NCBI RefSeq assembly: GCF_056746865.1
Contig: NZ_CM163382.1
Length of the DNA stretch: 64,000 nucleotides
Direction: 5' to 3' (one strand)
Shown: positions 3,698 to 54,962 of the stretch, piece by piece
How the letters are laid out: the number at the start of each line of letters is the position of its first letter
Position numbering within the stretch: the stretch's first letter is position 1
Notes under the pieces: model-generated
The model's database searches: none
Seen by the model: only the letters and a program-made list of their open reading frames with translations
What the model was told of the DNA's origin: nothing
Program-made: the position numbers and the translations under genes

Positions 3698-4132
3698 ATG
3701 CGACAAATCATCGACACCCTGGCGCAGTTGCAGCGCCTGCGGGATAAATCGGTCAAAGACAAAACCGTCGAGCTGGCAAAGCAAAAACAGATTTGTGCGG
3801 GCTATGACAACAATATCAAAGCATTAGGCTACCTGGTGGAGAAAACGTCTGCAGGCGCGGCGGCCTCGGTGGAATCGCTGAAAAACGTTAGCGGCTACAA
3901 AGGCACCCTGCGCAAGGTGATCGCCTGGCAGGAGCAGGAAAAAACGCTGGCCGACATCAAAGCCACGCGAATGCAGAAAAACCTGACGGCGGCGGCGTGC
4001 GAAGAGAAAGTGGTGGCCCTGACGCTGGACGACAAACGCCGCGAGCAGCAGGAAAGCGCCACCGCGAAAGCGCAGAAAGCGGTGGATGACATCGCCGTTC
4101 AGTGCTGGCTGCGGCATAAGTTAGCGGAGTAA
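3698..4132 (+). CDS. lfiJ: Flagellar export chaperone FliJ
   Basis: 144 aa, predicted coiled coil, lying immediately after fliI. Confidence 0.7.
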   Translation: MRQIIDTLAQLQRLRDKSVKDKTVELAKQKQICAGYDNNIKALGYLVEKTSAGAAASVESLKNVSGYKGTLRKVIAWQEQEKTLADIKATRMQKNLTAAACEEKVVALTLDDKRREQQESATAKAQKAVDDIAVQCWLRHKLAE

Positions 4133-4134
4133 CC

Positions 4135-4539
4135 ATGAAAACGGTCATCACCTTCGGCACCTTTGATGTGTTTCACGTCGGTCATCTGCGCCTTTTACAA
4201 CGCGCCCGCAAGCTGGGCGAGCGGCTGCTGGTCGGCGTATCGTCCGACGCCCTGAACATCGCCAAAAAGGGCAGGGCACCGGTTTACCATCAGGATGACC
4301 GCATGGCGATTATCGCCGGTCTGGCGTGCGTGGATGGCGTTTTTCTGGAGGAATCGCTGGAGCAGAAAGCGGAGTATTTGCGGGGGTACGGTGCGGATAT
4401 TTTGGTGATGGGCGATGACTGGGCGGGGAAGTTTGACGATTTCTCGTGTGTCTGTGAGGTGGTCTATTTTCCCCGTACGCCATCGGTATCGACGACGGGG
4501 ATCATTGAGGTGATTAGGGGTAAATCAGCCACCTACTGA
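4135..4539 (+). CDS. Glycerol-3-phosphate cytidylyltransferase-like protein (TagD family; predicted to make CDP-glycerol)
   Basis: 134 aa with an N-terminal GTFDVFHVGHLRLL motif, the HxGH signature of the cytidylyltransferase fold. It starts 3 nt after the lfiJ stop, so it is probably co-transcribed with the flagellar operon. Confidence 0.75.
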   Translation: MKTVITFGTFDVFHVGHLRLLQRARKLGERLLVGVSSDALNIAKKGRAPVYHQDDRMAIIAGLACVDGVFLEESLEQKAEYLRGYGADILVMGDDWAGKFDDFSCVCEVVYFPRTPSVSTTGIIEVIRGKSATY

Positions 4540-4594
4540 TTTAATTCCCGCGGTGAGAGAAGATGATGCCGTCTGCCGTTTGGCTATGTTAAAT

Positions 4595-4690
4595 ATGTTT
4601 AAAAAATCGCGTTTTTTCGACATATCCCCAAAACATGTCGATGGCATAAACGTATTCCAACGACATGTTTAAAAATCGCATTTTATCGAC
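4595..4690. repeat. Direct ~32-bp repeats and CGACAT/ATGTCG inverted repeats in a convergent intergenic region
   Basis: GTTTAAAAAATCGCGTTTTTTCGACATATCCC at about 4597 and GTTTAAAAATCGCATTTTATCGACATATCCC at about 4658, with AACATGTCG...CGACATGTT between them. Confidence 0.6.
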
Positions 4691-7154
4691 ATATCCCTGA
4701 CGATTCCTTGCCCGCCAGCGCCTCCACAATCACCATCGCCGCCCGTTCTCCCGCCTTGCCATCCATAAACGCATCGCAATAGTGATGACGAATCTCCTTA
4801 AGCCGCGCCAGCAACGCACCCCAGTCAAACGCCTCTGACAACAAATAACGCAGTTCCGCAACATCATGAGCCACCGGCAATATTTCGCGGATTTGCTGGT
4901 CGGCGCTTTCGGGCGTGGAGTAACTTTTCTCACCGTCGAGCAACGCTGCCATTTCCGGAAAGTCGAGCAGGATTACCCGCTTATCAACGTGGATAGCATC
5001 GAAAATAAAGCCGCTGTTATCGGTCAGCACGTAATCGGCCTTTGCCAGTAGCGCCAGCGTGTGGTGGACGGAGTCGGTGCGCTGTTTTAAGTGCCTGCGC
5101 GCCAGGGCCAGCGATGCAGCTTCTTCCGGGCGCGAGCAGGTGCCGTGGTGCAGTTTGCAAATCAGATTCACATTGCCACTTAAGCGCCCCAATTTTTCTG
5201 CCCAGTGGGGCAGGGAGCTTAATGCGCCAAACGTGGGGGCGTAGAGCACCGTAGGTTTACGGGAATCGGGTTGAATATTTTCTGGCAGAATGCGGTCAAA
5301 CGTGCCGTTATGCCAGGCGTCGAAGCGCGGGTTGCCGACTGCTTTTGCATTGCCGAAATGCGCCAGCGCCCGCTGGCTGTAGTGGCTGTAACACAAAATG
5401 CGTTGATAAAAACGGTTCCAGTCGGCGTGGTTCCACGTCTCTTTGGCTAAGCCATACATGGCGCGAACGTTCACCGCTGCCAGGCCATTGAGCGCGGGCG
5501 TGTGGTAGGGGCTGACCAGGCATTTCACCCGCTGACCGTGTGCCTGCATTTCAGATAAGCGCATTCCTTTGAGCTGCGGATCGTCGATGCTTTTTAGCGT
5601 CTCCAGCATTTCATCCAGAAACGGTTTAAACACGCGGTCGTTGATCACCAGCGTGCAGCCTTGCCCCTGCGCCTGTAGGGCGGTGATGATTGGGCGGTAG
5701 AGCGCGTAATGGAAAGAAGTTTCCATAAAAAAGCCGATGGTGTCGGCGATGGGTAACGCGGATGGCTTTGTGATAGCAGGTAACTTATTGAAATAGTGAG
5801 CAATATTATCAGTCATTTTTTTCTCGATATCGCTAAAGCCTGGTCGCTGATAACTAAGGCTCGGGTAACAGGCCAGCCATTTGTCGGCGCGTAGCAGCGG
5901 CTGCCAGCCGTCTTCCAGCGAATGCTCATCGTTGCTCATCTGCTGCGCCAGTTGCGGGTAGTAGCGGCGGTTCACCAGATAAGCGCATACCTTGCGGCAG
6001 TCCCGCGCGTGCACCAGCCCCGGCAAACTTTTTAGCATCGTTCCCTGCGAAATTTCGCCGCCGAGGATCATCACCTGCCAGGGAATTTTCGCCAGGCTCG
6101 CCAGCAGCGTGTTCAGCACCTGAATATGTTTCTCCTGCTTGAGAATAACCGCGTCATCTTCCAGCAGCAGATAGTTTTGCCAGCCGTGCTGTTGCGCCAG
6201 GCGCAGCGCCTGCAAGTGCGACTGACGTCGTCCCCGTTGGCCGTTTTGATCTTCACTGGCGGCAAGGCGGGTGATCTTCTCAGGTGGAATATGCAGCAAT
6301 GCCAGTTCTTCACGGATCTGTTGTAAGCGATCCGGGCGTTTATCCAGATTCACAACAACTACCTGATCGATCGTCTGATGGTTGATCCCTTGGTGATGAG
6401 TGGCGTTATGTAGACTCAGATAAGCATTGCGCAGCAGCGGATCGCTGACGATATCTGTAAGCGCCGCGTTTACAGGCGTGCTGGCCCCGAGAATAAAGTC
6501 TTTATCAAAGGTGTTGTGGCTGTGCGAGATACACAGAATCGTGCGCTCGCCGGGCAGTTGTAGCGGGTTAACGCTGAAATTGTCGGTGAAACTTTTCTCT
6601 TCGCCTAAATTGCAATCATCGTCGTAACGGTGCTTTTTCAGGTAGTTACGGTGATAGCAAAAGGTGCCGTTGAGGATGTTATGTGGGCCAAAGCTGCGGC
6701 TTTGAAAGATGCGATTGATGTGGCTGTACCAGATGGGGATCTGGTCGGAGCCGGAGATGAGCGCCCGGTGTTTTTGCATCTTGGCGATGGTCCAGGAGAT
6801 TTTATCTGCCGGGTAGTAGTCGTCATCGTCCATGCAGAGGATGTATTCGCCGCGCGCCAGTTCGTTGAGCATATTGCGTTTTTTGCCCAGCGGCAGTTTT
6901 TCCGGGTGATGAATATAGCGGATGTTAAAGGCTTCCGGCGTGCCATTGGTCAGGCGGTCGATGATGTGTTGATGGCTTTGCGGGGAATCGTCGAGGATGA
7001 TGAGTTCGCGGCGGTCTGCCGGGTAGTCCTGATAGCGGTACATATAAAGCAGGTACGGCAGGAATGCGCTGCGGTTCCAGGTTGGCGTGACGACGCTGAT
7101 GAACGGTTTTTCGCGCTGGGTGGCGAGTGTTTTGATAATGGTTGGTGTTGGCAT
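4683..7154 (-). CDS. Multidomain glycosyltransferase: N-terminal GT2-like, central GT25-like, C-terminal CDP-glycerol glycerophosphotransferase (TagB/TagF)-like
   Basis: The ORF track gives 4683..7226, but its first 24 codons translate the repeat element, so the ATG at 7154 (MPTPTIIK) is the probable start. GT2-like motifs: VVTPTWNRS and LCMDDDDYY (DxD). GT25-like segment: VVVNLDKRPDRL...LLEDDAVI. TagF-like C-terminus: ADYVLTDNSGFIFDAIHVDKRVILLD. Confidence 0.8.
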   Translation of the reverse strand: MPTPTIIKTLATQREKPFISVVTPTWNRSAFLPYLLYMYRYQDYPADRRELIILDDSPQSHQHIIDRLTNGTPEAFNIRYIHHPEKLPLGKKRNMLNELARGEYILCMDDDDYYPADKISWTIAKMQKHRALISGSDQIPIWYSHINRIFQSRSFGPHNILNGTFCYHRNYLKKHRYDDDCNLGEEKSFTDNFSVNPLQLPGERTILCISHSHNTFDKDFILGASTPVNAALTDIVSDPLLRNAYLSLHNATHHQGINHQTIDQVVVVNLDKRPDRLQQIREELALLHIPPEKITRLAASEDQNGQRGRRQSHLQALRLAQQHGWQNYLLLEDDAVILKQEKHIQVLNTLLASLAKIPWQVMILGGEISQGTMLKSLPGLVHARDCRKVCAYLVNRRYYPQLAQQMSNDEHSLEDGWQPLLRADKWLACYPSLSYQRPGFSDIEKKMTDNIAHYFNKLPAITKPSALPIADTIGFFMETSFHYALYRPIITALQAQGQGCTLVINDRVFKPFLDEMLETLKSIDDPQLKGMRLSEMQAHGQRVKCLVSPYHTPALNGLAAVNVRAMYGLAKETWNHADWNRFYQRILCYSHYSQRALAHFGNAKAVGNPRFDAWHNGTFDRILPENIQPDSRKPTVLYAPTFGALSSLPHWAEKLGRLSGNVNLICKLHHGTCSRPEEAASLALARRHLKQRTDSVHHTLALLAKADYVLTDNSGFIFDAIHVDKRVILLDFPEMAALLDGEKSYSTPESADQQIREILPVAHDVAELRYLLSEAFDWGALLARLKEIRHHYCDAFMDGKAGERAAMVIVEALAGKESSGICR

Positions 7155-7198
7155 GGTGTTTGGGTGAGTTAATGGGTGAATGTGATGAATGTGCGTGC

Positions 7199-7313
7199 TG
7201 ATGCCCTCACCCCGACCCTCTCCCACAGGGAGAGGGAGAAAACCAGCGCTGATTTTAACACCGTGCTCGATCGGTTCCCTCGCCCCTTTGGGGAGAGGGG
7301 TAGGGGGAGGGGA
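7199..7313. repeat. G/C-rich nested-palindrome repeat element, copy 1
   Basis: CCCTCACCCCGACCCTCTCCCACAGGGAGAGGG ... CCCCTTTGGGGAGAGGGGTAGGGGGAGGGG, with the same architecture and flanks (GTGCGnnCTGATG) as the copy at 14561..14685. Confidence 0.7.
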
Positions 7314-7332
7314 AAAGCGCGCACAGAGCGAC

Positions 7333-8301
7333 TCACGTCAGCAGCGAAAACGCTGAAAGCAGCGGCTCTGCCGCACATAACGACTGAATTTGCTGGCGAA
7401 TCGACGCAGCATTTTCACTCTCTCGCCAGCGTTCAAACACCGCAAAAAGGGCGAAAATATCCTCCTGTCGCAGCGGTGAACCATCCAGCGTCCATAAACT
7501 GATTAACGTGCGGATAAGATAAAAATCGCACACCAGCGGGCAATAATCTGCTCCGTCTGCCTGCCCAATCACCTCATGGTAAACGCGGTAAATCAGCCAG
7601 TTACGCATCATCCAGGGCGCGGTAGCAAAATGCTGTTGCCAGGTGGTTTGCCACTGTGCCTGAAGCTGATGTTGTAACAGGGCTTCGCTGTTGGCGTCAT
7701 GTAGCGCCAGCAAAGGCATCTGCAACGGCAGCGAAGTTTTGCGCGGGCTTTCCGGCAAAATCGACCAGTCAAACGCACAACTGCCGAGCAGCGTCATCAA
7801 CTGGCGCGCCAGTTGTGGCACGGGCGGCAACTGGGCGAACTGTGCCTGTAGCGTGCCTTTTTTCGCATGATCGGCCAGCGCCTGCGGCAGCGTCGTCAAA
7901 CGGGCAAGAATATCTCCGTCTCTGCCCGGCATTTTACTGGCGCGGGAGAGTAAAATCCCGATGGCATACAGGGAAAGCTCTGGGGTTAAATCGGGGAGCG
8001 TGAGGGTACTCAAAATCACCTGGTTTACTATCGCATCGCGCGCGGAAAGCTCTGCGGCATTTTCTTCCACAGGACGGTAGGTGAGCTGTAAATCAAAGGC
8101 CCTGGCATCGTTGAGTACCGCTTCGCAGCTGGCTGGCTCTGTCAGCATCAGGCTCTGGCGAATCTCGTTTTTCCACACCTTGCGGATGTACAAAGGCGAA
8201 TCGGGATATTGCGTCATAAAATTGCGCACGTATTCCGGTTCGTAACATTCAATAAAACTCATAGGTGGCTTCCAGTCTTTATTACTTTGCGGAATATGCA
8301 A
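7333..8301 (-). CDS. Hypothetical protein (322 aa) at the end of the lfgA-lfgM-lfgN gene string
   Basis: Long ORF co-oriented with lfgN and ending just upstream of the glycosyltransferase gene. I recognise no motif. Confidence 0.5.
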   Translation of the reverse strand: MHIPQSNKDWKPPMSFIECYEPEYVRNFMTQYPDSPLYIRKVWKNEIRQSLMLTEPASCEAVLNDARAFDLQLTYRPVEENAAELSARDAIVNQVILSTLTLPDLTPELSLYAIGILLSRASKMPGRDGDILARLTTLPQALADHAKKGTLQAQFAQLPPVPQLARQLMTLLGSCAFDWSILPESPRKTSLPLQMPLLALHDANSEALLQHQLQAQWQTTWQQHFATAPWMMRNWLIYRVYHEVIGQADGADYCPLVCDFYLIRTLISLWTLDGSPLRQEDIFALFAVFERWRESENAASIRQQIQSLCAAEPLLSAFSLLT

Positions 8302-8388
8302 TAAGCGTGCCGGGAATTTTTATAATCAAAAACAAAGGATTGTGAATCAGGCGGAAAATCCGTTTCCGCTATGGGGAAGGTGTTCGCG

Positions 8389-8817
8389 TTATTCCTGATA
8401 CAGAAAATCTGCTTCGTTGCCTAAAAACGACTGGATAAATTCATACTGGCGAATCAACAGATCACCGTTTTTGTCGTTGTAGGTTTTGCAGCGTTCCGCT
8501 TTTTGCTCAAGGCGTTGCCACAACTGTTGTGCTGCCGCTTTTTGTACCGCCGGAAGCCAGGCAAACACCTGCGCCAGACCGTCACGATTTACGCTAACAC
8601 CGAGCATTTTCAGCAGGCTATGCCGCTGATGGCTATGTCCATGCAACTGCTCATAGTGATGGGTTATCTCATCGTTTACCGCCAGCAACTCTTCGCTGGC
8701 GCGGCGAATCATGCAGATCCGCTGACGTTGGAGAAGTTCGCGCAGGGAATCATACAGCGCGTCGTCGTCACGAATTCCCTGCAACAACGCCTTCACCTGT
8801 TGTAACCGGATACTCAC
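8389..8817 (-). CDS. lfgN: Flagellar export chaperone FlgN-like
   Basis: 142 aa, helical, in the flgA-flgM-flgN position. Confidence 0.65.
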   Translation of the reverse strand: MSIRLQQVKALLQGIRDDDALYDSLRELLQRQRICMIRRASEELLAVNDEITHHYEQLHGHSHQRHSLLKMLGVSVNRDGLAQVFAWLPAVQKAAAQQLWQRLEQKAERCKTYNDKNGDLLIRQYEFIQSFLGNEADFLYQE

Positions 8818-8829
8818 TTCATCGGCCTC

Positions 8830-9108
8830 TTAGTTCTGGAAAAAACTCAGCATATCGCTGGCTAACTGTTCGGTGTCCACTTGCAGGCTGCCGGAGGCCA
8901 GCATCGCCTGCATTTGCGCCACTTTATCGCTGTCGATATCGCTCTCTTGCTGGTCGTTCAGTGTTTGCTGGGCAGACTGCAATCCCGCCTGGGTAATGTC
9001 GTCGGCGCTTAGCGTCGTGGCGGTGGTCGCCGTGCTTTTGCGCGACTGGCTGGAGCCTGCCGTTGTGGCTGTCGGGCGATTGCCTGGCATAGTCGGGGTG
9101 ATTTTCAT
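8830..9108 (-). CDS. lfgM: Anti-sigma-28 factor FlgM-like
   Basis: 92 aa with a Ser/Thr-rich disordered N-terminus and a conserved FlgM-like C-terminal helix, lying between flgA and flgN homologs. Confidence 0.7.
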   Translation of the reverse strand: MKITPTMPGNRPTATTAGSSQSRKSTATTATTLSADDITQAGLQSAQQTLNDQQESDIDSDKVAQMQAMLASGSLQVDTEQLASDMLSFFQN

Positions 9109-9147
9109 CGCAACCTCGTCTCGGTATTTAGGTGGGTTACTCCAGTA

Positions 9148-9174
9148 AAGCGGTTAACAGGCGGCAAAACTTTA
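9148..9174 (-). promoter_or_regulatory. Candidate sigma-28-type promoter upstream of lfgM
   Basis: The minus strand reads TAAAGTTT-N11-AACCGCTT. The -35 half matches the sigma-28 consensus TAAAGTTT; the -10 half is a weak match to GCCGATAA. Confidence 0.3.
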
Positions 9175-9188
9175 ATCGCCTGCGCAAA

Positions 9189-9926
9189 TTACTCCGCGCT
9201 TACCGTCGTCACCACGCCGCTTTCCGCCACCATCGCGCTGATGACCCGCTGGCTGCTGGCGTTACGCACTTTCACCATCTCGCCTTTGCGACCATTTTTC
9301 AGCGCCACGCCGGGCATCGAGGCGGTGATCCCCGCGCTCTGGTAAACAATCATCACCGGCTGATCGCGTTCGACCAGCACTGGCGAAACCAGCTCTTCTT
9401 TGGTGATGGGCCTGCCCGGTTGCAGCGCGTGTTTACTGCTGAAACCAATCGCGTCATCGGGATCCATCAACACATTGCGGCGCTGGGCGCTGACGTTGTA
9501 GGGCTTCAACTCCACATCATTTGCCGTGAGCGGCGTGTCGCGGGCAACCAGTGACTTCGCCATTACCACCGGCACCAGAACATCCGGGCGCACCGCCACG
9601 TTCATCTGCCAGCTTTGCGGGCAACTGACGGTGAAGTTCATCCGGTTGAGGGTGATTTCCGCAGGCGAAGTGAGCGTGACGCCGGGTGTAGTCGCACAGG
9701 GGGCGGCGGTCGCAATCTGCGAGGGAATATAGACCTTAAAGGTGTAGCGATAGTCATGCCAGCGCCGCTGTTGCGCCAGCGATTCAATTTCCTGGCTCGC
9801 GGCATTTAGCACCTGGGCGTTGACTTGTTCCCGCGCGCTGTGTTGCACGGGGTGGACGGCGGCGTAGCCCGGTAAGGCCAGCACCAGGAGGAAGAACAAC
9901 TTCCGCCTGCAAAATTGAAAACTCAT
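9189..9926 (-). CDS. lfgA: Flagellar P-ring assembly chaperone FlgA
   Basis: 245 aa with a signal peptide (LFFLLVLALPGYAA), divergent from flgB as in canonical flagellar loci. Confidence 0.8.
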   Translation of the reverse strand: MSFQFCRRKLFFLLVLALPGYAAVHPVQHSAREQVNAQVLNAASQEIESLAQQRRWHDYRYTFKVYIPSQIATAAPCATTPGVTLTSPAEITLNRMNFTVSCPQSWQMNVAVRPDVLVPVVMAKSLVARDTPLTANDVELKPYNVSAQRRNVLMDPDDAIGFSSKHALQPGRPITKEELVSPVLVERDQPVMIVYQSAGITASMPGVALKNGRKGEMVKVRNASSQRVISAMVAESGVVTTVSAE

Positions 9927-13579: not shown

Positions 13580-13720
<141 letters not shown>

Positions 13721-20385: not shown

Positions 20386-20730
20386 ATGATGTGGGACGTC
20401 GAGACAACGGAGACTTTCGACAACTGGTTTGATGCCCAGACTGTTGCGCTGAAAGAAGATTTACTTGCTGCAATGCTGATTCTTGCTGAGTATGGCCCAC
20501 AGTTGGGCAGACCCTTTGCGGATACGGTTAATGATTCACAGTTTTCAAATATGAAAGAATTACGCGTCCAACATCAGGGAAACCCGGTACGTGCTTTTTT
20601 TGCTTTCGATCCTGCGCGCCGTGGCATTGTATTATGTGCGGGTGATAAAACGGGGTTAAATGAGAAAAAGTTTTATCGCGATATGATCAAGCTCGCTGAT
20701 TCTGAATACCGTAAGCATCTGAAAAAGTAA
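20386..20730 (+). CDS. Type II toxin, RelE/ParE superfamily (HigB-like 'addiction module killer' family)
   Basis: 114 aa with a C-terminal GIVLCAGDK...KKFYRDMIKLAD region reminiscent of HigB-like killer proteins. It lies 9 nt upstream of a small HTH gene, and the toxin-first order is typical of higBA. Confidence 0.7.
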   Translation: MMWDVETTETFDNWFDAQTVALKEDLLAAMLILAEYGPQLGRPFADTVNDSQFSNMKELRVQHQGNPVRAFFAFDPARRGIVLCAGDKTGLNEKKFYRDMIKLADSEYRKHLKK

Positions 20731-20739
20731 GGAACGATA

Positions 20740-21039
20740 ATGGCTACTCTAAAAGAACTGATGGCAAAGCAAAGCCCTGAAAGCCAGGTGCGTATTGCGG
20801 CAAAAGTTGAGGAAATGCGCCAGACCATCGCCTTGCATCAGCTGAGAGAAGAACTCAATATTTCGCAAACGGAAATGGCGGCAGCGATGGGCATTAAGCA
20901 ACCGACTCTTGCAAAAATGGAGCAGGCAGATAACGATCCTCGGTTGTCTACGCTAAAACGCTATGTTGCGGCTTTAGGTGGGGAATTGAGTATCGACGTT
21001 AAACTGCCGAATGGTAAGAGAATTGCATTTCAGATTTAA
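20740..21039 (+). CDS. Type II antitoxin, XRE/HigA-family helix-turn-helix protein
   Basis: 99 aa with an HTH motif (ISQTEMAAAMGIKQPTLAKME), tightly coupled to the upstream toxin gene. Confidence 0.75.
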   Translation: MATLKELMAKQSPESQVRIAAKVEEMRQTIALHQLREELNISQTEMAAAMGIKQPTLAKMEQADNDPRLSTLKRYVAALGGELSIDVKLPNGKRIAFQI

Positions 21040-22424: not shown

Positions 22425-23339
22425 ATGTTATCTATTAACACCAATAACGCCTCAATGGCCGCCGTTAATGCAATCAGCAAAAGCAGCTCTTCTCTGTCTA
22501 CATCTATGGAACGCCTGGCGACAGGTAACCGGATTAACTCTTCTGCCGATGACGCCGCAGGCAAACAAATTGCTAACCGTCTGACAGCACAGTCCAGCGG
22601 TATGGGTGTTGCGCTGAGCAACATCAATGATGCCACCGCGATGCTGCAAACCGCTGACAGCATGTTCGACGAAATGTCTGACGTGCTGGGTCGTATGAAA
22701 GACCTGTCAACTCAGGCAGCGAACGGCACCTACAGCGACGACGACCTGCAGGCGATGCAGGACGAATACGACGAACTGGGCCAGCAGATGTCTGACATGC
22801 TGCAAAACACCACTTACGGCGGCACCAACCTGTTCGGTGTTTCCGGTACCAGCAACACCGGTACTGACGGTCTGTTCCAGAGCGCGGTAACTTTCCAGGT
22901 GGGCGCGGAATCTTCCGACACCATGACCGTGAATATTTCAAGCCAGCTGAATACCCTGGTGACGGATCTTTCTGCAATCAGCAACTCCTTTAGTGCGGAT
23001 CAGGCTGACACCACTGGCACCGCAGGCGTTTCTGGCGGTACTGAGCTGACTGCGTCTGGCTCGGCTAACCAGATGATCACCAGCATCTCTACCGCGATGG
23101 ATGACGTGTCTCAGATCCAGTCCAAGCTGGGTGCCTCTATCAACCGTCTGAACGACACTGCCAACAACCTGACCAGTATGCAAGACAACACCGAAGTCGC
23201 TATCGGTAACATCATGGATACCGACTACGCGACGGAAGCGTCCAATATGACCAAACAGCAAGTGCTGATGCAGACTGGCATCACCATGCTGAAACAGTCC
23301 AACAGCATGTCCAGCATGGTTTCCAGCCTGCTGCAGTAA
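22425..23339 (+). CDS. lafA: Lateral flagellin
   Basis: The ATG at 22425 follows an AAGGAG ribosome-binding site. It has the flagellin N-terminus (MLSINTNNASMAAVNA...RLATGNRINSSADDAAG) and C-terminus (MTKQQVLMQTGITMLKQSNSM), about 304 aa. Confidence 0.9.
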   Translation: MLSINTNNASMAAVNAISKSSSSLSTSMERLATGNRINSSADDAAGKQIANRLTAQSSGMGVALSNINDATAMLQTADSMFDEMSDVLGRMKDLSTQAANGTYSDDDLQAMQDEYDELGQQMSDMLQNTTYGGTNLFGVSGTSNTGTDGLFQSAVTFQVGAESSDTMTVNISSQLNTLVTDLSAISNSFSADQADTTGTAGVSGGTELTASGSANQMITSISTAMDDVSQIQSKLGASINRLNDTANNLTSMQDNTEVAIGNIMDTDYATEASNMTKQQVLMQTGITMLKQSNSMSSMVSSLLQ

Positions 23340-51903: not shown

Positions 51904-53162
<1,259 letters not shown>

Positions 53163-54384: not shown

Positions 54385-54397
54385 TGCATTGAATAAT

Positions 54398-54426
54398 AAA
54401 AATGGCGCAAATGCAGCGCCATTTTT
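54398..54426. terminator. Bidirectional rho-independent terminator candidate between yagU and ykgJ
   Basis: AAAAATGGCGC-AAATGCA-GCGCCATTTTT: an 11-bp perfect stem flanked by A-runs and T-runs. Confidence 0.7.
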
Positions 54427-54632
54427 ATAGGTTAAAAACATTGCTTTTTACTTTCTGAAGCAGATAGCCAGTGAGTACATCGCGCTACTTCAGGATGCTG
54501 TAGATCCGGAGAACACTATAGAGGAAGAGGCATTGTTGCTGGCAGATGGAAGAAGTTTCGGGTTTTGTTATCCCTGAAAAACGAAGCCCCGCGGTTATAG
54601 CTGGCGGGGCAGTGCAATTAATTATTGCATAT

Positions 54633-54962
54633 TTATAACGGTGTCAGCCCGTATTTAGCTCTTGCACGATTGCAAGCCTCATTGACGACTCCGTTCTCAC
54701 CAGACATGGCGAATTCTCTGCATGTGGACGATCGATTTTTATATATCGTGCAGCAGGCATTTTTGCCCGGGGTTCCTGCAAGGGCAATACATCGGGGGTT
54801 TTTCTGATTGGTACCGCTCATGCATCGGTGAAAAGGGGATATTTGTTCAGTGAGCCTGGCGGGAATGGTACCGCCAGCATCGTCGGCTTCGGCCCAGTAA
54901 AAAGAGACGCGGAAAAATGCACAACAGGCACCACACGTCATGCATGGATTCAGATTGCTCAT
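54633..54962 (-). CDS. ykgJ: Cys-rich zinc/iron-chelating domain protein YkgJ
   Basis: 109 aa with CxxC clusters ([11 protein letters not shown]; CRCGAY-like). Confidence 0.8.

Follow-up and report, generated by a model that had tools for sequence, protein, structure and literature searches.

What is made by the genes lodged between lfiJ and lfgN in the Flag-2 lateral flagellar locus of Escherichia coli, and which molecule receives it? The question was addressed in a window of 64,000 nt, meaning the whole stretch of DNA analyzed, which is an E. coli chromosome segment identical to positions 292884-356883 of strain 118UI (NZ_CP032515.1). The Flag-2 locus in this window is apparently intact, and none of its genes is flagged as a pseudogene. 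The gene order in variable region 1 (VR1) is lfiJ, tagD, GT, lafV, and lfgN, where GT is a glycosyltransferase gene encoding a protein of 823 residues. The favored explanation, given a probability of about 0.6, is that the cassette carries out the cytoplasmic O-glycosylation of the lateral flagellin LafA with a glycan capped by glycerol-phosphate. The tagD product would supply CDP-glycerol, and the three domains of the GT protein would each contribute one transfer.

A TagD-like protein beside a three-domain transferase

A sequence-only reading of this DNA had placed two convergent genes between lfiJ and lfgN. Both open reading frames lie where it put them, at 4135-4539 on the plus strand and 4683-7154 on the minus strand with a 143-bp spacer between, and they belong to a group of three, lafV (7333-8262, minus strand, 309 aa) having been overlooked. 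The first gene does follow lfiJ (3698-4132) directly, with its start two bases after the stop codon.

The small gene (4135-4539, plus strand) encodes 134 residues, and its product is TagD-like, as had been proposed from its HxGH motif. It matches Pfam CTP_transf_like with E = 2.7e-20, and the alignment with B. subtilis TagD (PDB 1COZ) is full length, pairing residues 1-129 with TagD residues 1-128 at E = 4.5e-33 with 62 of 127 positions identical (49%). The S. aureus enzyme 2B7L matches at 5e-28. Fold and motifs are common to the two proteins: HxGH (residues 14-17, with H14 and H17), D38, K44, R55, and D66 are retained, the GDDW(x)GKFD block is nearly identical, and RTPSVSTT aligns with RTEGISTT of TagD (RTxxxSTT). 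The ethanolamine- and choline-phosphate cytidylyltransferases in the PDB are far weaker matches, at 1e-16 to 1e-5. PGAP names the protein just 'adenylyltransferase/cytidyltransferase family protein'. These similarities give good support for assigning the small gene product as TagD, the CTP:glycerol-3-phosphate cytidylyltransferase.

The second gene, GT (4683-7154, minus strand), had been described as a single polypeptide of about 820 residues that fuses three catalytic domains. It encodes 823 residues, and all of the motifs that had been quoted are present: DDDDYY at 109-114, NLDKRPDR at 269-276, EDD at 332-334, and LTDNSGFIFDA at 710-720. The longest open reading frame extends upstream to a GTG at 7226; the 823-aa form starts at an ATG and is 100% identical to the RefSeq 'glycosyltransferase' WP_001143100.1 (P0001), a cluster of 370 member sequences. 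The protein is predicted to be soluble, with no transmembrane-like segment found along its 823 residues, and it corresponds to the 'GT2-1' of De Maayer 2020.

The first domain (residues 1-252; 6399-7154, minus strand) is a GT2-family GT-A glycosyltransferase, in agreement with the sequence-only reading. Pfam PF00535 matches the query with E = 2.5e-17 and is found in 20/20 orthologues. Of 55 homologues, 53 keep the D55-D56-S57 (DDS) and D109-D112 (DDDD) motifs, and the other two have one substitution each.

The middle domain (residues 253-466; 5757-6398, minus strand) was placed by structure prediction. A first full-length AlphaFold2 (AF2) model was calculated from 20 sequences, and its GT2 domain was poor, with a predicted local distance difference test score (pLDDT) below 50 at residues 102-230. 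The model used was that of residues 1-466 from a 55-sequence alignment, which has a pLDDT of 90.5 and a predicted template modeling score (pTM) of 0.87. It contains two tandem GT-A domains. The top 8 Foldseek matches to this model are all human COLGALT1 (E = 5e-18 to 5e-16), and after these come PmHS2 and K4CP, which are bifunctional tandem GT-A polymerases. COLGALT1 (GLT25D1; PDB 9EVJ and 8ZGC) is the human collagen hydroxylysine galactosyltransferase, and like residues 1-466 it has two tandem GT-A domains, the second of the GT25 type. Both proteins glycosylate protein acceptors, the E. coli enzyme by prediction. They differ in that sequence identity is 13-14%, the COLGALT1 acceptor is hydroxylysine, and the E. 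coli enzyme keeps its Asp motifs in both GT-A domains. Pfam GT25 (PF01755) matches one of 20 orthologues, that of Plesiomonas only (5.4e-6). Orthologues, profiles, and structure models together point to a GT25-like second GT-A domain.

The middle-domain motifs divide the family in two. NxDxRxDR and EDD are intact in the query and in 20/20 other three-domain homologues, and they are lost in 33/34 two-domain proteins. The GT2 domain is a candidate initiating transferase, placing the first sugar on protein, because it is the sole intact glycosyltransferase in the two-domain homologues. Its conservation pattern makes it the probable initiating protein O-glycosyltransferase, and the GT25-like domain would add a further sugar in the fused form.

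The third domain (residues 467-823; 4683-5756, minus strand) is a TagF-like polyol-phosphate transferase domain with a predicted GT-B fold. A profile built from this C-domain and its stand-alone homologues matched only TagF-family enzymes in the PDB, namely Cps3D (9e-9), TarL (2e-7), and TagF (5e-6), and no epimerases. Foldseek with the full-length model returned TagF (3L7J/3L7L; E = 1.5e-9, template modeling score 0.55-0.59) along with TarL, Cps3D, and Bcs3. UDP-GlcNAc 2-epimerases score comparably to TagF in this search, so the fold alone is not decisive. The motifs align with Cps3D, TarL, and TagF: GNPRFD at 607-612 (GxPRxD), YAPTFG at 638-643 (YAPTxR), KLHHGT at 667-672, which holds the His equivalent to TagF H584, and TDNSGFIFD at 711-719 (TDYSS..FD). 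Pfam Glyphos_transf matches 8 of 20 orthologues at E <= 0.001, with a best value of 5e-8. The GT-B fold, GxPRxD, YAPT, the His, and TDxS..FD are thus common to the C-domain and to S. epidermidis TagF and S. aureus TarL. The C-domain differs from these wall teichoic acid enzymes in having neither the membrane-association region nor a wall-polymer context, and in a highly divergent N-terminal half. Profile and fold support a TagF-like assignment.

A UDP-GlcNAc 2-epimerase was considered for the C-domain on the strength of many fold matches and weak Pfam Epimerase_2 matches in six orthologues. It was rejected because the profile matches TagF-family enzymes only and the TagF motifs align.

Teichoic-acid-type chemistry is less unusual in enterobacteria than the sequence-only reading had claimed: the E. 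coli K2 capsule is a teichoic-acid-like glycerol-phosphate polymer, and fusions of a glycosyltransferase with a TagF-like domain are the polymerases that make such polymers (PMC5974469). These capsule polymerases (CslB, Cps1B, Cps3D, Cps7D, and Hib Bcs3) join a GT-A or GT-B domain to a TagF-like domain in one multidomain enzyme, as here, and receive CDP-glycerol from a neighboring cytidylyltransferase (PMC5974469, PMC10299916). Their likeness to the 823-aa protein raises the alternative of a processive polymerase, alternating sugar and glycerol-phosphate to build a teichoic-acid-like poly(glycosyl-glycerol-phosphate) on flagellin or another primer. The GT-A plus TagF-like fusion is the CslB/Cps1B-type architecture (PMC5974469), the best PDB sequence match of the C-domain is the capsule polymerase Cps3D, 8QOY and 8A0M are fold matches, and PmHS2 and K4CP recur among the matches to the N-terminal half. 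The capsule polymerases differ in belonging to group 2 capsule loci, in usually carrying a TPR domain, in extending long chains on a lipid primer, and in their length of 1,000-1,250 aa (PMC5974469, PMC10299916). The E. coli protein has flagellar neighbors, two GT-A domains, and no TPR domain in the Pfam output, and no kps or ABC-transporter capsule context was seen among the neighboring genes. The flagellar export channel is narrow, and a long anionic polymer on flagellin would need to pass through it. The experimentally studied C. difficile flagellin system with a TagF-like protein makes a single phospho-substituent (PMC10714395). A processive polymerase is accordingly considered quite improbable.

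Co-occurrence, gene fusion, and selection

The relationship between TagD and the TagF-like domain was followed in a scan at one genome per species, which yielded 37 loci that were pooled with loci fetched earlier; the co-occurrence count covers 38 loci, and the variable regions of three loci (L026, L027, and L014) are incompletely covered. Of the 26 loci whose TagF-like module is canonical, 25 have TagD, comprising 21/22 in which the module is fused and 4/4 in which it is split. None of the other 12 loci has TagD, the TagF-like domain being degenerate in 5 of them and absent from 7. The association has a Fisher p = 5e-9, with no correction for phylogeny. Absence of TagD goes with decay of the TagF-like motifs, for example KLHHGT to TLPPAV and TDNSGF to GDNRAL, and with faster divergence of the C-domain than of the N-terminal domains: the ratio of C-domain to N-terminal-domain identity relative to E. 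coli is 0.63-0.72, compared with 0.87-1.06 in loci that have TagD. Of the evidence obtained, the co-occurrence and the motif decay in loci without TagD argue most strongly for TagD as the supplier of the TagF-like domain.

In four of the loci without TagD and with a decayed TagF-like domain (L009, L010, L011, and L012, from Atlantibacter, Enterobacter, and relatives), a gene encoding a 760-800-aa GT4+GT2 fusion adjoins the three-domain gene. A different C-terminus occurs in Phytobacter massiliensis (L037:8001-10583; P0078 and P0079), where the same two N-terminal GT-A domains (~75% identical) are attached to an unrelated domain. In related proteins, Pfam PF05159 Capsule_synth takes the position of the TagF-like domain, suggesting that domains were swapped.

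The Flag-2 locus of Erwinia sorbitola is ordered lfiJ, a 468-aa two-domain GT, FliB_C, TagD, a 369-aa stand-alone Glyphos_transf protein, and flgN. The stand-alone protein is 45% identical to the E. coli C-domain. The E. coli 823-aa protein is a gene fusion, since Erwinia carries the same functions as separate genes. Outside Enterobacterales, in Burkholderia oklahomensis (L003:8001-14617), the gene for a two-domain GT is followed in turn by those for FliB_C, a methyltransferase, a SerB-like HAD phosphatase, a nucleotidyltransferase, and a TagF-like protein, and then by flagellin and motAB. This set stands immediately upstream of the flagellin gene and is gene-for-gene reminiscent of C. difficile cd0240-cd0244. 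In a Plesiomonas sp. (L002:11211-15618), the three-domain orthologue adjoins the lateral motAB genes. In place of TagD, the orthologue is accompanied by homologues of the Campylobacter phosphoramidate pathway, its neighbors encoding a PRK05849 PEP-utilising kinase-like protein, a protein of the gamma-glutamyl-CDP-amidate hydrolase family (E = 3.7e-32), and a nucleotidyltransferase. This arrangement hints that the TagF-like domain there uses another CDP-activated donor. A flagellar context that is conserved in several lineages lends weight to the earlier suggestion that the genes may modify flagellin.

The ratio of nonsynonymous to synonymous substitution rates (dN/dS) was calculated against E. 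albertii. The values are 0.196 for GT, 0.13 for tagD, 0.139 for lafV, and 0.13 for flgN; the three GT domains in order give 0.16, 0.22, and 0.19. The tagD, GT, and lafV genes are under purifying selection, like flgN. The lfiJ-lfgN region is present at >= 80% coverage in 1,269 of 5,426 complete E. coli genomes.

These data bear on the alternative that the genes are intact yet effectively silent, in a Flag-2 locus that is cryptic in E. coli and has no current function. Its appeal is that 4,157 of the 5,426 complete E. coli genomes are without the region, that a repeat element sits between lafV and GT, and that Flag-2 function is documented mainly outside E. coli (PMC11420993). It is very unlikely, given that purifying selection on tagD, on all three GT domains, and on lafV equals that on flgN, and that no Flag-2 gene of this strain carries a pseudogene flag.

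The G+C content is 56.3% for tagD, 54.5% for GT, and 54.0% for lafV, compared with 51-61% in the neighboring flagellar genes. The flagellar G+C attributed to the two convergent genes holds in the sense that both are similar to their neighbors and within their range, at its low end, with values a little lower than those of the core flagellar genes. A recent horizontal origin was also weighed and finds no support, as neither G+C nor GC3 (G+C at third codon positions) departs from the core flagellar range and Escherichia species share the gene order.

LafA as the presumed acceptor

The presumed acceptor, LafA, is encoded at 22425-23339 on the plus strand and is annotated as the lateral flagellin. 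Its residues 101-225, a region expected to be exposed, contain 37 Ser/Thr and no Lys. This composition fits O-glycosylation and speaks against the methylation of surface lysines by LafV.

LafV (7333-8262, minus strand) is a FliB-C-terminal-like protein whose gene adjoins GT in nearly all related loci. It matches the NCBIfam FliB model NF038110 with E = 3e-11 and 43.4 bits against a cut-off of 85, and the match covers only positions 106-367 of the 373 in the profile, so that the resemblance of LafV to the flagellin methylase FliB is limited to the C-terminal two-thirds of the latter. The CxxCxxCC motif is typical of the FliB N-terminus, and it was not found in LafV. A Pfam search with LafV gave no matches. 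The partial profile match, the score below cut-off, the missing CxxCxxCC motif, the empty Pfam search, and the lack of Lys in LafA 101-225 make the 'lysine N-methylase' label doubtful, and LafV probably does not methylate lysines of LafA. Its near-constant adjacency to GT allows the speculation that it is an accessory or substrate-recognition factor. A stand-alone CxxCxxCC cysteine-cluster protein, YkgJ, is encoded at 54633-54962, ~46 kb from lafV; the proximity is probably coincidence.

In the favored mechanism, TagD, co-transcribed with the flagellar export genes, would convert CTP and sn-glycerol-3-phosphate to CDP-glycerol in the cytoplasm, a location that agrees with the lack of transmembrane segments in the proteins. 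The GT2 domain would transfer a sugar from a housekeeping nucleoside diphosphate (NDP)-sugar to Ser/Thr in the exposed central part of LafA, and the GT25-like domain would add a second sugar. The TagF-like domain would then transfer glycerol-phosphate from CDP-glycerol to the glycan, forming a phosphodiester and releasing CMP, and the modified LafA would be exported through the lateral type III apparatus. LafV would be a conserved partner in the pathway, more likely as a flagellin-recognition or accessory factor than as a lysine methylase. The identities of the genes and domains, their conserved linkage, the co-occurrence, and the selection are observed, and from them the acceptor, the sugars, the sequence of reactions, and the glycerol-phosphate product are inferred. 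The route is not as self-contained as had been claimed, there being no NDP-sugar synthesis genes present.

Several points count against this mechanism. Direct evidence of Flag-2 expression in E. coli was not found in the literature searched. Two domain calls of the sequence-only reading stand on fold and profile rather than on Pfam: GT25 (PF01755) finds no match in the query even at E <= 10, so that the GT25-like call is upheld by COLGALT1 as the best fold match (E = 5e-18), and Glyphos_transf (PF04464) is marginal in the query at E = 0.028 (residues 602-728), so that the TagF-like call is upheld by the fold and by PDB profile matches confined to the TagF family. A counterpart of the first catalytic His (TagF H444 / TarL H300) was not located. 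The TagF alignments begin after H444; by spacing, the matching region is SPY(H/Y)TP at 548-553, and the invariant H482 lies elsewhere. A phmmer search of the PDB with the Burkholderia stand-alone TagF-like protein, aimed at the H444 region, gave no matches. In the TagD-like protein, K46 of TagD is replaced by Gly, flanked by K45 and R47; we take K44 and K46 to be the catalytic lysines of TagD. Its score against NCBIfam TIGR01518 is 115.5 bits, below the equivalog cut-off of 165.4, so the name TagD is inferred here and not a certified assignment. One locus, from a metagenome-assembled genome (L032), combines an intact TagF-like domain with a variable region that contains no TagD. The donor used by the TagF-like domain family is not fixed, because Plesiomonas pairs the domain with phosphoramidate-pathway genes.

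The replaced lysine and the score below the curated threshold also favor an alternative in which the chemistry is different, with another phospho-alcohol being activated or with hexose-phosphate or some other phospho-group being transferred. The TagF-like domains of capsule polymerases can transfer hexose-phosphate (PMC5974469), and related flagellar loci use other nucleotidyltransferases, phosphoramidate-type in Plesiomonas and CD0242-like in Burkholderia. This alternative has to contend with the 49% identity to TagD over the full length, with the near identity of GDDW(x)GKFD and RTxxxSTT, and with the far weaker matches to ethanolamine- and choline-phosphate cytidylyltransferases, and its likelihood is judged to be low.

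The acceptor might also be something other than flagellin, such as the lipopolysaccharide (LPS) core, enterobacterial common antigen, a capsule-like glycan, or another flagellar protein, with the module merely riding in a Flag-2 recombination hotspot. Cargo genes with a wide range of functions are documented for the VR1 hotspot (PMC6993521), and the usual targets of GT25 and TagF relatives are LPS or wall polymers. Set against this, the pair of GT and FliB_C genes lies in a flagellar neighborhood in Escherichia, Citrobacter, Enterobacter, Erwinia, Rahnella, Plesiomonas, and Burkholderia, and the Burkholderia pair is in a locus directly beside the flagellin gene. The genes are at the 3' ends of flagellar gene strings, and no flippase, ligase, or lipid-carrier priming gene was seen nearby in the window annotation. 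A non-flagellin acceptor is rated unlikely.

The proposed modification of LafA has a close parallel in the type A system of C. difficile, encoded by cd0240-cd0244 in a flagellar locus, in which a glycosyltransferase places a sugar on Ser/Thr of flagellin, with a cytidylyltransferase as the proposed source of a CDP-activated donor (PMC4441256, PMC10714395). The TagF-like CD0244 was found by quantitative proteomics to be required for the addition of phospho-threonine to GlcNAc on FliC, and CDP-threonine is the proposed donor (PMC10714395). The type A system differs from the E. coli cassette in its proposed donor, CDP-threonine rather than CDP-glycerol, in its separate polypeptides, and in its Gram-positive host (PMC4441256, PMC10714395). 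The Burkholderia gene set is closer to the type A cluster than the E. coli module is.

A bolder proposal goes beyond a capped glycan and is itself unlikely. It makes the 823-aa protein a self-contained machine with three activities that builds a teichoic-acid-like glycosyl-glycerol-phosphate oligomer or polymer on lateral flagellin. The protein would belong to a wider, unrecognized flagellar 'phospho-capping' family in which a TagF-like transferase is served by an interchangeable CDP-X supply (glycerol in E. coli, threonine-like in Burkholderia, phosphoramidate in Plesiomonas) and flagellin is selected by a FliB-C-like adaptor.

The module and its proposed role in flagellin modification are an already published prediction. 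De Maayer et al. (2020, BMC Genomics) defined VR1 between lfiJ and lfgN and proposed, purely in silico, that teichoic-acid-type glycopolymers are part of the flag-2 flagellin glycan (PMC6993521). The locus and gene set are the same as here: GT2-1 (mean 828 aa, 222 strains, annotated as pfam00535 only), TagD (133 aa, 235 strains), TagB1-8 (65 strains), and LafV (~311 aa) were listed (PMC6993521), and the sizes agree with supplementary Table S3 (828, 133, and 311 aa). The fused TagF-like and GT25-like domains went unremarked, and LafV was treated as a lysine methylase (PMC6993521). TagD (235 strains) far outnumbers stand-alone TagB (65) because the TagF-like domain is fused into GT2-1. A 2024 study of E. 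albertii repeats the De Maayer reading, and NCBI already names at least one orthologue (P0039) a bifunctional GT2/CDP-glycerol glycerophosphotransferase.

What is new here is incremental and consists of the three-domain architecture, the finding that TagD accompanies an intact TagF-like domain and that this domain decays without TagD, the motif dichotomy of the middle domain, and the doubt about LafV as a methylase. The existing hypothesis is sharpened to one activity per domain, with GT2 as the probable initiator, TagD tied to the TagF-like domain by co-occurrence, and caution over LafV. If the favored mechanism is true, the second flagellum of about one in four E. coli strains, and of many strains of Citrobacter and Enterobacter, could carry an anionic glycan with glycerol-phosphate on it. 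Antigenicity, phage and immune recognition, and the surface charge of the filament could be affected, and the glycan would be a Gram-negative counterpart of the C. difficile flagellin phospho-glycan.

Noncoding elements and other features of the window

The flanks of the two convergent genes had been described as free of repetitive extragenic palindromic (REP) DNA, but they do contain repeats. A dispersed inverted-repeat element of 136 bp (7190-7325, no strand) lies between lafV and the GT start, directly upstream of the latter, and a REP-derived match occurs elsewhere in the cluster. The element resembles a miniature inverted-repeat transposable element, with 51-nt inverted arms that are 71% complementary. 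Among 5,426 E. coli genomes, 3,852 carry the 60-nt core of the element, with ~2 copies each, and the full lafV-GT spacer with the element is found in just 694. E. albertii is without the element, and the lafV-GT spacer there is 47 bp. The REP-derived match is to the Rfam family naRNA4, a nucleoid-associated RNA, at 13586-13662 (78 bits) between the lfgF and lfgG homologues.

The convergent spacer between tagD and GT (4540-4682, no strand) is 143 bp long and AT-rich, with 38.5% G+C. It holds an 18-nt hairpin (4631-4670) flanked by 30-nt direct repeats at 4599-4628 and 4668-4697, and the second repeat copy runs over the GT stop codon. Most other GT orthologues keep a C-terminal 'NxLLxSLQxKLF' tail that the Escherichia proteins do not have; the missing tail and the repeat across the stop codon suggest a small rearrangement at the 3' end of GT. 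Rfam found no known RNA in or beside the tagD and GT genes. Sigma-70 promoter matches in 4000-9200 number 3, compared with 3.7 expected from shuffled sequence; sigma-28 and sigma-54 sites were not searched.

Outside the cassette, the second Flag-2 variable region, upstream of lafA, contains a RelE/ParE-type toxin gene and a helix-turn-helix antitoxin gene at 20389-21039. Toward the end of the window, paoA is split by a copy of the IS3-family element ISEc31 (51941-53154), and Rfam matches to isrC (51973-52095) and IS009 (54390-54590) lie near the split gene. A further ISEc31 copy lies beyond the window, a short way upstream of the Flag-2 locus.

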